A stretch of DNA of 64,000 nucleotides, taken from NCBI GenBank assembly GCA_019058445.1, contig JAHPZA010000006.1, positions 96,001 through 160,000 of the forward strand, given 5' to 3'. The stretch's first letter is position 1, and every line of letters starts with the position of its first letter. Shown here piece by piece: positions 6,003-12,451 of this stretch. Made by a program: the position numbers and the translations under genes. The DNA comes from Promethearchaeota archaeon (GTDB lineage Archaea > Asgardarchaeota > Lokiarchaeia > Sigyniarchaeales > SOKP01). The notes under the pieces were generated by a model. It was not told the DNA's origin and searched no databases. It was given only the letters and a program-made list of their open reading frames with translations.

Positions 6003-7385
6003 TCAATTATTAAGAATAAATTTCATTTTTTCTACCGGATTCCATAATTCCTCAGCTTTTTGCACCCATTCATTGAAATATTCAGGATTTTCTGGAAATT
6101 TTTCGTAATGCTTTCGAATTTTATCTGAAATTTTCATGTATTTTAGCATGGAATTTAATGTTGATCGAGAAAATTGCTGCGTAATCAAACCCCAAATAAA
6201 TACGGCTATGATTTTAATCATTCTTCCAAAATTGATGTGCAATTCGTGATACTGGTTCATATGCTCGAAATCTTTTCCACTAAAAATAATATTTTTTTTG
6301 AACAAGTATTCCATTTCCTTTTTAGTAGTGTTTGCTGCAACTGGAATTTGAGCAAGTAAAGCTGCTAATTTAGCTCCAATATCCCTATAATATCGGATAT
6401 TTATGTCCCATAATTCATTCTTAGATACATAATTGGGTGATTTTAATGCTTTAATAAATACATCAGTAGCAATTTTAGCAACAATCCAAGATAATGATAT
6501 ACCCTCACCATTAAATGGTTTAGTCATACATGCACTATCACCTATGCAAAAAAATCCATCTCCTACTAAAGAATAAGGTGAGCGTCGATACACTGTTGTA
6601 GCTTTATGTTCCTCTAAAATTTCATAGGGGGGAAAATGTATGTTCTCTAAGAAAATTTTATTTGCCTTTTCGACATTTTCATATCCTCCTGGTTGACCAT
6701 TCCCAAAGATATTGGCTTTAGATGCAAAGTGAGGGGCAATCCAATTTTTATAATACATCCAAGTGTTGGATTTCGCTTCCGTACCAGGGTGGGGTTCATC
6801 AGGTTTAAGCCATCGTATAACTCGTTGAATTACATACATTTTCTCATCATCATTTATATTAAATGTCTCTATTCCATAATTTTCTGGAAGAGAACTACGC
6901 ACAACCGCATTTGTACCAGAGGCATCTACAATAATCCTTCCAAAATATTCATATTCTTCATTAATTTTCTTAATAACAATACCAATTAATTTATTTTTAT
7001 CGAAGATTCCACATTTAAATCGACTTGAAAATTCAAACTGAAGCCCATCTGCTTCAGAAATTTTTATTAATCTTTGAATAAAAAAAGGAAATCTCATAGC
7101 AATCACGGGCCAATTCATTTTTTTGACTATCTTTCCAGAGGGAGAATAATGATTTGTAATATTGAATGACGTTATATATTCATCAGTCTCAGGACTAGGT
7201 GGGGGTACTCCAAATTCGTCAAAGGTATAGGCATCCATATGAAATTGGTCCATCTTTGATCCCACTTCAGTTCTTGAATCCCTTTCAAAAATTATTGTCC
7301 TTATACCCTTTTTTTCTAATTCCCATCCTAAATATATTCCAGCAGGTCCTGCACCTATAATTAGAACATCATATTTTTTATTCAT
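6003..7385 (-). CDS. FAD-dependent oxidoreductase, geranylgeranyl reductase-like
   Basis: YDVLIIGAGPAG dinucleotide-binding motif, IVDASG and IGDSACMTKPFNGEGI. Start reassigned to ATG at 7385 (MNKKYD) to avoid overlapping xpd. Confidence 0.8.
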   Translation of the reverse strand: MNKKYDVLIIGAGPAGIYLGWELEKKGIRTIIFERDSRTEVGSKMDQFHMDAYTFDEFGVPPPSPETDEYITSFNITNHYSPSGKIVKKMNWPVIAMRFPFFIQRLIKISEADGLQFEFSSRFKCGIFDKNKLIGIVIKKINEEYEYFGRIIVDASGTNAVVRSSLPENYGIETFNINDDEKMYVIQRVIRWLKPDEPHPGTEAKSNTWMYYKNWIAPHFASKANIFGNGQPGGYENVEKANKIFLENIHFPPYEILEEHKATTVYRRSPYSLVGDGFFCIGDSACMTKPFNGEGISLSWIVAKIATDVFIKALKSPNYVSKNELWDINIRYYRDIGAKLAALLAQIPVAANTTKKEMEYLFKKNIIFSGKDFEHMNQYHELHINFGRMIKIIAVFIWGLITQQFSRSTLNSMLKYMKISDKIRKHYEKFPENPEYFNEWVQKAEELWNPVEKMKFILNN

Positions 7386-7462
7386 AGTTGACGAAAAACT
7401 GAAATGAATAAAAAGATTGGTAAAATAATCAATAAAAATGAAAATGGTATACGTTTTAAAAT

Positions 7463-9649
7463 TTAATTCGAGTTCCAAAATGGATATAAATGTTGAATAA
7501 TGGCATTTTTTTTATCGGGAACAATTTCTAATTCATTCCTAATCCAATCAGATATCCATTTATACTTGTTTTTAAATCTAGAATCCATGAAAATGATTGC
7601 CCCTTTATCCACTATTTTTCTTATTGGTCGACCAGACGCTTGATTTGCCCGTTGAACAGCAGGATACAAATAAGCAAAATTCCAACCCTGCTTGTTAAAT
7701 ACTTTATCATAGTATTCTATTTTTGCAGTAACTCGAGGAGTTGGTAAGTGATATGGGAATCCAGCAATAATTACCGCATTCATAAAATCTCCGGGATAAT
7801 CTTCGCCTTCTGAATTTCTTCCCCCGCATACTCCTAATAAAACGGCTCCTTTTCCAGGATTGCTTGCCATAGATTTAAAATCATTTACTAAAAAAGCATT
7901 TTCTGAGGCAGATAGTCCCGGTTCTTCCACAAACAATTTTTTTCTGTTTTTTTCTGCGATAGCTTCAAGTCCATTATCACGTAAACCTTTTAGTATCTTA
8001 TAGGAAGCACAAAAAATACCTACATTCGCAGGAGTACAATATAAAACTTCATTTATTTTATTCAATATTTTTTTATACATTGAAGGTGTCCTATTTTCTC
8101 TTTTGGTATCCACACCTTCTGTTATAATTGCTTTAATATTTTGTTTTTTAAATGGAGAATCTGCAATAATTCCTTTATAACTTTTTCCACTTTCATGTAA
8201 ACCCATTAAATGATTAAAGACATATGGATTTACGGTTCCAGAAAGATTTAGAGATGTGTAACAATTTTTTAAAATAGGTACGGCAATTTCCCTAGGATCT
8301 AATGCCACAATTTCAAGAGCTATCGTTTTTCTTTCTTTTACTTTCTGAATATTATAACAAAAGAAATAATTTTCTAATGAATAAGTTTTAATCCACTTTA
8401 ACCAAAAATCTGCTAAAGCACCCACGAAATCTCTTGAAATTTCACCATTAGCTAGCTTTTCTTCATGGATTGCTGCACTAAATTCGTAAAGATCCTTAAT
8501 AAAATTTTCATATTCGTTTAAATCGGCAAATCCAAGCTTTTTATGAATTTTTTCCAAAAATATATCGGGAGCTATTGCCTTTTCTTCAGTTTTCAGTATC
8601 TGCTTTTTACGATCAAGATGATCATACAAAATATTAACAAAGCTTTGCATTAATATAGGTGATTGATACATTTCCAAGTCTTTCAAACAAATTCTTAATG
8701 AATATGGGGTTATTCTCTCCGAATTTACATCTGTTGCTACATCAATAATATTATGACATTCATCAATTACTAAGATACATTTATTAACTTCAGTGCCTAT
8801 AAATTTTAGAAATGACTCTCTTATGGAAGGATTAAAGATCCAATTATAATTACAAATTATAATTCGCATTTCTTCCAATAAGAATTTAGATAAAAAATAA
8901 GGGCATAACTTATTTTTAGTACAGAATTTTATAAGATCCTCAGCATCAATTGGTTTTTCGAATAGATTTGGAGCTATTAATATAGGTTTATCGAATTCAT
9001 CTCGTTTTTTTAATAAATTTAAGAAATGAGTACAATTTCTATTTTTTCTTAAGTCTCTACATACGGCCATTGATTCTCGAGGATTTAATTTCAAGGATAA
9101 TAATGTTTTATTAAGACACATTTCATTACGTCCCCGTATCGATATACCATTTATTTTAGCTCCTCCTTTAATGGAATTTATCTTTACAAATTCTGAAATT
9201 TTAATTAATTCCTTAATAACTCTCGTATTTTGAGAGTGGGTCCTGCAGAGATAAATCAATTTTAAGTTTTTTTCAATTACAATTGGAAGAAGGCTGCTTA
9301 AAGCCATAATTGTCTTACCAGTGCCATTTGGGGCGACTAATAAAACAATCTTTTTAGCCCTTGCGCTCTCTTCGATTTGTTTAATAATATCTTCTTGCGA
9401 CTCTCTAAATTGCTCATAAGGAAAAAAATGGAAATAATTAATTTTATTTGATAATTGCGACTTATTCAATATTTTAATTTTTTTTTTATGATTTAGCTCA
9501 TTAGAAATGTGTTTATCTTTTTTAATAATAAGATCAGCTTCAATTTTTAATTTTTCACCCCTCTTGCTCCAATAATTACCACAAACTTTACAATAAAAAC
9601 TCTCTTTCTTGGGATATAAGAGATTTCCACAATCGGGGCAAAATTTCAT
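7463..9649 (-). CDS. xpd: XPD/Rad3 Fe-S SF2 DNA helicase with an N-terminal zinc ribbon
   Basis: Q motif (FRESQ), Walker A APNGTGKT, RTHSQ, Fe-S Cys (NEMC, AVCRD, RNCTH, LCPYF), DECH, LSGT, SEGEDY and QASGRPIR. Confidence 0.9.
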   Translation of the reverse strand: MKFCPDCGNLLYPKKESFYCKVCGNYWSKRGEKLKIEADLIIKKDKHISNELNHKKKIKILNKSQLSNKINYFHFFPYEQFRESQEDIIKQIEESARAKKIVLLVAPNGTGKTIMALSSLLPIVIEKNLKLIYLCRTHSQNTRVIKELIKISEFVKINSIKGGAKINGISIRGRNEMCLNKTLLSLKLNPRESMAVCRDLRKNRNCTHFLNLLKKRDEFDKPILIAPNLFEKPIDAEDLIKFCTKNKLCPYFLSKFLLEEMRIIICNYNWIFNPSIRESFLKFIGTEVNKCILVIDECHNIIDVATDVNSERITPYSLRICLKDLEMYQSPILMQSFVNILYDHLDRKKQILKTEEKAIAPDIFLEKIHKKLGFADLNEYENFIKDLYEFSAAIHEEKLANGEISRDFVGALADFWLKWIKTYSLENYFFCYNIQKVKERKTIALEIVALDPREIAVPILKNCYTSLNLSGTVNPYVFNHLMGLHESGKSYKGIIADSPFKKQNIKAIITEGVDTKRENRTPSMYKKILNKINEVLYCTPANVGIFCASYKILKGLRDNGLEAIAEKNRKKLFVEEPGLSASENAFLVNDFKSMASNPGKGAVLLGVCGGRNSEGEDYPGDFMNAVIIAGFPYHLPTPRVTAKIEYYDKVFNKQGWNFAYLYPAVQRANQASGRPIRKIVDKGAIIFMDSRFKNKYKWISDWIRNELEIVPDKKNAIIQHLYPFWNSN

Positions 9650-9768: not shown

Positions 9769-10968
9769 ATGAATGATAATTTCGATTTCGATGAATTTAT
9801 AAAAAAACTTTCTTTTCCTCGATTATCAGGTTCTGAGGGAGAGATAAAAGCCCAAGAACTTATCGAAACTGAACTTAAAAATCTAAAAATTGATCAATAT
9901 AATAAAGAATCATTTAGTTACACTACTTTTTTTATGAACTTCTTATTAAGAACCTATAGTTCCTTAATAGGACTGCAAATGATTCTTTTAATTATGATGT
10001 TATATTTAAATCTCGTTTATTATGTAATTCTATTTGCTTCTGTTTTATTAATAACAGCTCTCTTTAGTCGAGAGATCAGAGAAAAAATTCAGTTTAAATT
10101 TACAAAGATCGGAAAAAAGAGAACATCTGCAAATTATATTATAGAATTACCAGCCAAACATGAAGATAAAGATAAAAATCAAAATATCATAATTCTCGCC
10201 CATTATGATTCGATTAGTATGACTTTTCATCCAATTTTCGATGGAGTAATTTTCTTCTTTTCTTTAGTTGGTGGAGTAATATTTTCACTTCATATCTTTT
10301 TTATATCTACCTTATATCTTCTGAATATAATTCAATCTATTGAAATCATTCAATTTTTTTATGGATTTTTCTTAGCTGGTTTTTATTGTTTACAATTTTT
10401 TAATAAACGGCATAATAAATCTTTTGGAACAGCAGATAATGCTACAGCAGTAGCTAATAGTTTTTATTGCATTGATTACTTCAGTAAAAATCCACTAAAA
10501 AATACGAATTTATTTTTTGTCTTAACAGGTGCAGAAGAAATGGGGGATTATGGAGCAGATTCTTATATAAAAAAACACAATTCTGAGTTTAATAAGAGTA
10601 ATACGTTTTTTTTTATTCCAGATACAGTCGGAGCTAATGAAGAGACAAATCTTTATGCTTATGCTCAAGGATTCCCGAAAAAAATGTTTTCTCCTAAAAT
10701 TAAAGTTAATATTGAAGAGCTTGTAAAAACTAGCCAAGGATCTTATAAAATTAAACCATTTTATATTCCACCTTTAATTCACTTTAGTACAGATCATGCC
10801 CCTCTAAAACCATTTGGTTATGAATTTATGATCTTTCTATCGAATGCTCCAATTCATTCTGAAAAAGATAATATAAACAATTATCATCCTAATATGTTAG
10901 AAGACTTTAATTTATTTATGAGAGATTTAATAATTCTGATGGATAAAAACTTTAACTATAAAACTTAA
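9769..10968 (+). CDS. M28 family metallopeptidase with inserted TM segments
   Basis: PRLSGSEGE, LAHYDS, GTADNA, TGAEEMG, STDH and IHSEKD metal-ligand motifs, with hydrophobic insertions. Confidence 0.8.
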   Translation: MNDNFDFDEFIKKLSFPRLSGSEGEIKAQELIETELKNLKIDQYNKESFSYTTFFMNFLLRTYSSLIGLQMILLIMMLYLNLVYYVILFASVLLITALFSREIREKIQFKFTKIGKKRTSANYIIELPAKHEDKDKNQNIIILAHYDSISMTFHPIFDGVIFFFSLVGGVIFSLHIFFISTLYLLNIIQSIEIIQFFYGFFLAGFYCLQFFNKRHNKSFGTADNATAVANSFYCIDYFSKNPLKNTNLFFVLTGAEEMGDYGADSYIKKHNSEFNKSNTFFFIPDTVGANEETNLYAYAQGFPKKMFSPKIKVNIEELVKTSQGSYKIKPFYIPPLIHFSTDHAPLKPFGYEFMIFLSNAPIHSEKDNINNYHPNMLEDFNLFMRDLIILMDKNFNYKT

Positions 10969-11920: not shown

Positions 11921-12451
11921 ATGAAAACAATGTCTCGACAATTGCTCTTTAAAGTAATTGTAGTCGGTGATGGTGGAGTTGGAAAATCGACAATGGTCAA
12001 ACGTTTAACAACAGGACTTTTTATCCCTCAAAAAATCACAATAGGAACAGATTTAGCTTCAATTCAAATTGATATGGGAGCTAAGGGCTCTGCTAAACTA
12101 CAGATATGGGATTTTGCTGGAGAGAAGCGTTTTCGATTTTTCTTACCAAATTATGCTCGAGGAGCACTGGGCTGTGTGTTATGCTACGATATTACAAGAT
12201 ATCAAAGTATCGAGAGTTTAATCGAATGGTACAAAATTGTTAAAGAAAATGCGGCCAATCCTGTGTTTGTCCTAGTTGGATGTAAGTCAGATTTAGTTGA
12301 AAAAAGAGTACTTGATTTTAACATTGGCAAACAATTTCAAGAAAAGTATAAAATTGATTATTTTTTTGAAAGTTCATCTAAATCCGGAGAAAATAATCAA
12401 CTTATTTTTCAAACTCTAACAGAGGGGATAATTGAAAAAAAACTTGCTTAA
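11921..12451 (+). CDS. Rab-like small GTPase (Ras superfamily)
   Basis: G1 GDGGVGKS, G2 TIG, G3 WDFAGE, G4 GCKSD and G5 ESSSK; no C-terminal prenylation motif. Confidence 0.9.
   Translation: MKTMSRQLLFKVIVVGDGGVGKSTMVKRLTTGLFIPQKITIGTDLASIQIDMGAKGSAKLQIWDFAGEKRFRFFLPNYARGALGCVLCYDITRYQSIESLIEWYKIVKENAANPVFVLVGCKSDLVEKRVLDFNIGKQFQEKYKIDYFFESSSKSGENNQLIFQTLTEGIIEKKLA

Follow-up and report, generated by a model that had tools for sequence, protein, structure and literature searches.

In eukaryotic transcription-coupled repair, TFIIH is placed on the downstream DNA in front of a stalled Pol II, and XPD, as part of TFIIH, reaches the polymerase indirectly, through p44, MAT1 and the rest of TFIIH together with CSB, CSA, UVSSA and ELOF1. 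For archaeal XPD, we know of no established physical partner that would explain what it does in the cell. The characterised archaeal XPDs are monomeric, start at the helicase core and have no targeting domain. The zinc ribbon proteins of RNA polymerase are the second kind of system that matters here. In the cryo-electron microscopy complex of S. acidocaldarius RNA polymerase with TFS4 (7OQY), the N-terminal ribbon of TFS4 sits between the Rpo1'' upper jaw and the Rpo2 lobe and is held by hydrophobic contacts; the linker extends the jaw with additional strands, while the C-terminal ribbon reaches into the funnel (PMC8448823). Anchoring to the polymerase is the role of this N-terminal ribbon in all studied members (PMC5715097, PMC8448823). 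The gene described here appears to join the two systems. It lies in a 64,000-nucleotide stretch of a Promethearchaeota archaeon genome (contig JAHPZA010000006.1, positions 96,001 to 160,000; called the window below), occupies 7463..9649 on the minus strand with its stop codon included, and encodes a 728-residue XPD/Rad3 helicase preceded by a zinc ribbon that is best assigned to the TFS/Rpb9 type.

The ribbon covers residues 1-37 (9539..9649, minus strand), with cysteines C4, C7, C20 and C23 and four predicted beta strands. PF02150 (Zn_ribbon_RPB9) matches residues 1-24 with 26.3 bits when the whole protein is scanned and 29.5 bits when residues 1-70 are scanned, against a gathering cut-off of 25.2 bits, and it is the only Pfam ribbon family that exceeds its own cut-off at this N-terminus. 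RecR_ZnF (19.5 bits), Zn_ribbon_Nudix (15.9 bits) and the TFIIB-type ribbon (14.6 bits) all stay below theirs. Among 45 orthologous ribbons, 31 match PF02150 at an expect value (E) of at most 0.01; the runner-up family, PF17026, matches 27 members with much weaker E values. M1, F3, C4, C7, L11, C20 and C23 are invariant across these orthologues, and P5 and K21 are more than 90% conserved.

Solved structures point the same way. A profile of 38 ribbons compared with all PDB sequences ranked TFS4 highest (7oqy_Y, E 3.6e-7) and the Rpb9 proteins of plants and of yeast next; the first unrelated ribbon was YfgJ, with an E value of 0.003. The alignment of 7oqy_Y to the profile runs from 1-25 on 1-25 without a gap, so the cysteine pairs have the same spacing in the XPD ribbon and in S. 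acidocaldarius TFS4, 12 residues. Like TFS4/TFS1, Rpb9, A12.2 and C11, the four-cysteine (C4) ribbon of the fusion starts at Met1, with the motif MxFCPxC. A Foldseek search with the ribbon alone also placed 7oqy_Y first (E 0.059), followed mostly by chain I of Pol I and Pol II, but these E values are not significant and nothing was found at E <= 0.001. Taken together, the sequence comparisons support a ribbon of the TFS/Rpb9 N-ribbon type, as the initial annotation had proposed from the cysteine motif, and not a generic or NudC-type one. Elsewhere in the genome, the other weak PF02150 matches in long open reading frames (ORFs) are unrelated multi-cysteine proteins.

The fusion is not transcription factor S proper, because it has no second, C-terminal TFIIS-type ribbon and it falls below the cut-off of TIGR01384 (25.2 bits against 64.75). 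The NCBIfam models of TFS and TFS4 match only in part, with 25-30 bits against cut-offs of 64.75 and 120, and these matches are confined to the XPD N-terminus. Unlike TFS, the fusion has no acidic/lysine hairpin and no TFS-type linker, and its effector is a 650-residue helicase.

Downstream of the ribbon comes a variable linker rich in Lys, Asn and Ser (residues 38-71; 9437..9538, minus strand), which is probably disordered, to judge from model confidence, low identity and length variation. In the AlphaFold2 model the ribbon strands fall at residues 10-14, 17-20, 26-30 and 33-36 with a predicted local distance difference test score (pLDDT) of about 80; residues 39-55 score below 50, and the helicase, from about residue 72, above 90. 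Depending on the orthologue, the stretch between the last ribbon cysteine and the FFPY motif measures 31 to 67 residues. In 48 ribbon-bearing proteins 16.7% of the linker is Lys, in agreement with the Lys-rich linker noted at first reading. Among 45 non-identical carriers the helicase has a mean pairwise identity of 71% and the linker one of 17%; residues 1-27 reach 57% and residues 28-37 reach 28%. The model and these identities suggest a conserved small domain on a flexible, fast-evolving tether of 30-70 residues. They also suggest that the ribbon is under conservation where it is kept, and the contrast between its 57% and the linker's 17% makes a functionless remnant unlikely. The fusion is not a chance event: ribbon, linker and core recur together, in frame, in 45 metagenomic proteins that are not identical to one another and in the genomes of 20 species.

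The helicase core itself is complete. TIGR00604 (rad3) matches the whole protein with 304.5 bits against a curated cut-off of 246.95, and three Pfam modules cover the core. Walker A (residues 106-113, nt 9311-9334) lies just upstream of the DEAD_2 region of helicase domain 1 (HD1; residues 133-316, 8702..9253, minus strand, 110.9 bits), which includes the 4Fe-4S domain, with cluster cysteines 178, 197, 206 and 249 (nt 8870-9139), and the DECH box. The Arch (helical and beta-bridge) domain follows at residues 335-517 (8099..8647, minus strand; HBB, PF06777, 49 bits, cut-off 30), and helicase domain 2 (HD2; Helicase_C_2), with motif VI, at residues 534-705 (7535..8050, minus strand; PF13307, 122.5 bits). 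In a 90-sequence alignment the Walker A residues G109, G111 and K112, the DECH box residues D296, E297 and H299, the cysteines C178, C197, C206 and C249 of the Fe-S domain inserted in HD1, and the motif VI residues Q670, G673, R674 and R677 are all invariant. The AlphaFold2 model of the full protein, built on this alignment, has a pLDDT of 90.5, and its top Foldseek matches in the PDB are the T. acidophilum, human and yeast XPDs (E 1e-40 to 1e-33), with template modelling (TM) scores against solved XPDs of 0.70-0.86 when normalised by the length of the solved chain. The order of HD1, 4Fe-4S, Arch and HD2 is that of the T. acidophilum, S. acidocaldarius and S. tokodaii XPDs (Foldseek E 1e-40 to 1e-19, TM up to 0.86). 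The intact XPD core described in the initial annotation is thereby confirmed, and the sequence identifies the product as an XPD/Rad3 5'-3' Fe-S DNA helicase that is predicted to unwind DNA.

The reading frame runs from an ATG at 9649 to 7463 on the minus strand, is open for 728 codons and begins with MKFCPDCGNLLYPKKESFYCKVCG. The sequence AAGGGA lies 9 nucleotides (nt) before the ATG, and TATA-like boxes, TTTTATA and AAATATAAAT, can be seen by eye 47-70 nt upstream of it. The first internal Met does not come before residue 115, so there is no obvious ribbon-less isoform. This genome has no XPD homologue besides the ribbon-bearing gene, and most other carriers likewise give no second XPD match, so the fusion protein must also do the ordinary work of XPD.

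The ribbon profile also picked up a small ORF of about 80-110 codons in 38 of 41 genomes of the family (E 1e-9 to 1e-15); canonical TFS genes were not reached at E 0.001 in the same 41 genomes. The 24 small proteins collected are about 83 residues long and highly conserved. Their N-ribbon is followed by a motif built round an invariant His and by an acidic tail whose last residues are aromatic, and they have no C-ribbon. They match positions 1-58 to 1-73 of the 101 positions of the TFS_arch model, with 36-37 bits, and align to Rpb9 through the inter-ribbon linker with the His motif (E 4e-4), and on these grounds they are TFS paralogues from which the catalytic C-ribbon has been lost. A precedent is crenarchaeal TFS2 (sso0605), in which the C-ribbon has been lost and a Glu-rich segment stands in its place (PMC5715097). 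The family is TFS2-like by sequence, and it looks like an undescribed polymerase-associated factor of Lokiarchaeia-type archaea. The genome's own copy is a single 78-residue protein outside the window (G000:C6:1039724-1039957, plus strand; L005 1501..1734; relatives in L122-L147) that is 57% identical to the XPD ribbon. A word-index search with this protein found one relative only, and it was the six-frame profile search that revealed the family. The genome also holds two complete TFS genes carrying QTR(S/R)ADE.

An hhalign comparison of the XPD ribbons with the 83-residue family gave a probability of 99.3% (E 1e-20) over 33 columns. Besides the cysteines, the two have M1, F3, P5, N9, L11, P13, L18, Y19 and K21 in common. 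Past column 33 hhalign found no similarity, and the XPD linker is unlike the linker and tail of the small protein. The most likely and simplest history suggested by these alignments is that XPD acquired, at its 5' end, the ribbon of a small TFS2-like paralogue. The fusion resembles TFS2 and the 83-residue family in that the N-ribbon has been kept and the C-ribbon replaced (PMC5715097), and it differs in that the replacement is a whole DNA helicase instead of a short acidic tail. Between them, the fusion and the small proteins show the N-ribbon behaving as a reusable module.

The distribution of the fusion is narrow. A ribbon-profile survey of 400 Asgard species genomes at E <= 1e-13 found carriers in 20 of the 135 species genomes (about 15%) of one Promethearchaeota family, f1, to which the archaeon of the window belongs, and no ribbon-XPD match in the other 265 Asgard genomes. 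The carriers belong to five genera: g1 (4 of 10 genomes), g5 (3 of 6), g6 (1 of 4), g11 (3 of 54) and g12 (9 of 42). Seventeen of the survey matches lie in open frames of 717-753 codons, the length of an XPD, and the three others are cut by contig ends (G152, G230 and G243). The short ribbon ORFs of G230 and G243 were considered as split genes and rejected, as contig ends cut both. In the sister family f3 the XPDs have no ribbon, including six further f3 XPDs whose N-termini were read. The ribbon-less orthologues start a few residues before the FFPY motif, and no separate ribbon ORF was found upstream of them within 600 nt at 23 loci, nor within 500 nt in four f3/f1 loci scanned. One alignment in G180 that extended into the linker through stop codons was AT-rich intergenic sequence and not a ribbon relic.

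A maximum-likelihood tree was made from 101 helicase cores, leaving out ribbon and linker. Presence or absence of the ribbon has to switch 13 times or more on this tree, and well-supported branches require 8 of these switches. The ribbon is present on the earliest branches of the clade, on a tree whose root and direction were not formally tested, and the economical reading is one gain followed by many losses. From the repeated changes and the presence in about 15% of one family's species, the fusion is a lineage-specific accessory, neither a general Asgard feature nor an ancestor of the eukaryotic arrangement. Conservation of the fusion in orthologues was thus borne out only in part: it is real, recurrent and conserved where kept, but patchy within one family and absent from the rest of the survey. 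With so narrow and patchy a distribution, the fusion tells us little about how the eukaryotic TFIIH arrangement arose.

What the ribbon does for the helicase is suggested by homology, which is the source of both the proposed polymerase docking and any repair outcome. The best explanation overall, which we hold tentatively and place a little short of an even chance, is by analogy: a TFS-type anchor on XPD would dock on RNA polymerase, with the helicase in front. The fusion would then be a TFS paralogue whose effector is a helicase. As in TFS4, Rpb9, A12.2 and C11, the ribbon would dock between the Rpo1'' upper jaw and the Rpo2 lobe, a site on the downstream-DNA face of the polymerase, and a tether of 35-50 residues would leash XPD in front of the enzyme, within reach of the DNA ahead. 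The polymerase reads the template 3' to 5', so if XPD loads on that strand ahead of a stalled enzyme, its 5'-3' movement would carry it towards the polymerase; such a geometry has been proposed for TFIIH in eukaryotic transcription-coupled repair. One possible outcome would be lesion verification and bubble opening for repair, that is, transcription-coupled repair; the other would be that the polymerase is pushed back or cleared and R-loops are removed.

In this proposal the fusion would be brought to the transcription machinery as eukaryotic XPD is by TFIIH, and a covalent docking domain would take the place of the indirect eukaryotic link. It would also act like bacterial Mfd, UvrD and DinG, DNA motors that work on or with stalled RNA polymerase, although these use other polymerase-binding modules and other docking sites. 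No Mfd was found above the cut-off in this genome. A broader version, which we regard as doubtful, is that the TFS N-ribbon serves as a portable RNA polymerase address label in one Lokiarchaeia-type family, and that the XPD fusion is a one-polypeptide, TFIIH-independent form of repair coupling, in which the helicase is tied to the front face of a stalled polymerase. The effectors behind the label would be the cleavage ribbon in TFS, the acidic tail in the 83-residue protein and the XPD helicase here.

Several observations weigh against polymerase docking. Binding is a prediction from homology. The homologous segment is about 33 residues long and comes without the linker with which TFS and Rpb9 add strands to the jaw (PMC8448823), so the affinity may be low. 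When the isolated ribbon was compared exhaustively with the pdb_via_wide library by VIA-align 2, Rieske-type knuckles ranked first at Z 5; Rpb9 homologues reached Z 2.9-3.4 (ASFV 3.4, S. pombe 2.9), in a domain too small to discriminate. The ribbon is also dispensable, since the helicase tree calls for at least 8 to 13 changes of its state and close relatives from a single genus do without it. Finally, ribbons occur on other archaeal XPDs. Of 120 Methanomassiliicoccales/Thermoplasmatales XPDs (P0270, P0278-P0396), 32 have an N-terminal C4 ribbon and a variable linker, a second lineage with the ribbon-tether-XPD layout, which is either independent of the f1 fusion or very old. The ribbons of this group are mostly generic: of 29, 24 match DZR, 13 match PF13240 and 8 match PF02150. 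Because generic ribbons occupy the same position on the XPDs of another phylum, the ribbon may serve a role unrelated to the polymerase. A complex prediction of the ribbon (residues 1-42, 45-row alignment) with Rpo1'' (398 residues) and residues 2-430 of Rpo2 scored 0.10 against a mark of 0.32, in a run made without controls, and counts neither for nor against binding.

The generic ribbons of that other phylum, the shortness of the domain and the non-specific VIA-align 2 search favour a general-purpose ribbon that binds DNA or a partner other than the polymerase, such as SSB/RPA, PCNA, MCM or a nuclease, with the likeness to TFS reflecting descent and not retained function. The representative search outside f1 that turned up this phylum's group also found N-terminal ribbons on one Heimdallarchaeial XPD (P0158) and on a second XPD from Lokiarchaeia (P0170), which reach only 14-15 bits on PF02150. 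A P. abyssi pull-down tied XPD to MCM and not to the polymerase (PMC3820547). Within f1, however, PF02150, 7oqy_Y and hhalign all indicate that the ribbon is specifically of the TFS type, and the residues common to it and the TFS2-like family extend past the metal ligands. No TFS-type member is known to act except by docking on the polymerase (PMC5715097, PMC8448823). A general-purpose ribbon is accordingly possible, if on the unlikely side. The solved archaeal XPDs align with the fusion only from the helicase core onward, which agrees with the earlier statement that characterised archaeal XPDs lack such a domain; in the 'long form' of the T. acidophilum protein (9p55) the N-terminus is longer by about 25 residues, and these do not align to a ribbon.

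It is also conceivable, but improbable in our estimate, that the ribbon is a polymerase tether whose job is not lesion repair, and that the fusion resolves R-loops or displaces polymerase stalled where transcription and replication collide, in the manner of DinG, the bacterial helicase of the XPD family, which has been linked to the clearing of R-loops and polymerase (PMC3820547). Deletion of XPD in T. kodakarensis causes little damage sensitivity, and clearance of polymerase or R-loops was proposed for archaeal XPD on that ground (PMC3820547). The genome has UvrA (1320 bits) and with it the bacterial UvrABC route for bulky lesions, and Bax1 (DUF790) was not found in the 92.6%-complete assembly. 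Against this, the docking step is itself a prediction by analogy, and one that repair by a polymerase-docked XPD has in common with it. That the ribbon is a functionless leftover of a neutral fusion on its way out is very improbable: repeated loss and the small share of carrier species would fit, but the four cysteines and the identity of the ribbon have been kept while the linker diverged, and among the carriers no disrupted ribbon frame could be confirmed.

No account of a fusion between XPD and a TFS ribbon turned up in full-text literature searches, and a survey of TFS paralogues lists Lokiarchaeial paralogues and no helicase (PMC5715097). Both parts are well known; the combination of XPD with a TFS ribbon, and the link that it implies, are new. 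If polymerase docking by the XPD ribbon is true, it would be the first direct link between XPD and the polymerase in archaea and a natural experiment in transcription-coupled repair. The fusion makes a helicase-polymerase link a concrete hypothesis that can be tested cheaply, with a defined peptide of about 35 residues.

The polymerase genes of the same organism have some features of their own. Rpo2 is encoded by a single unsplit gene of 1123 residues (G000:C1:133338-136710; L042 1336..4707), which lies on C1; the rpoA1 and rpoA2 genes are on C6. The ORF upstream of rpoA2 (L040 2684..4030, minus strand) is rpoA1 by position and sequence; its product closes with some 40 repetitive residues rich in Ala, Lys and Pro and then an acidic stretch, just before rpoA2. 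In relatives, the Rpo1'' matches (G154:C470, G125:C75 and G126:C111) lie in longer frames (928, 1844 and 2317 codons) or are split in two, which suggests inteins or fusions in some of their rpoA2 loci.

Within the window, the neighbours of the XPD gene have no obvious tie to repair or transcription. On one side, at 6003-7478 (minus strand), is a putative FAD-binding, geranylgeranyl reductase-like protein with a GAGPAG motif, and on the other, at 9769-10968 (plus strand), is a putative multi-pass membrane protein. Ras/Rab-like small GTPases are common in Asgard archaea, and a 176-residue ORF at 11921-12451 (plus strand) appears to be one of this kind, with the small-GTPase motifs GDGGVGKS and WDFAGE, recognised by eye.

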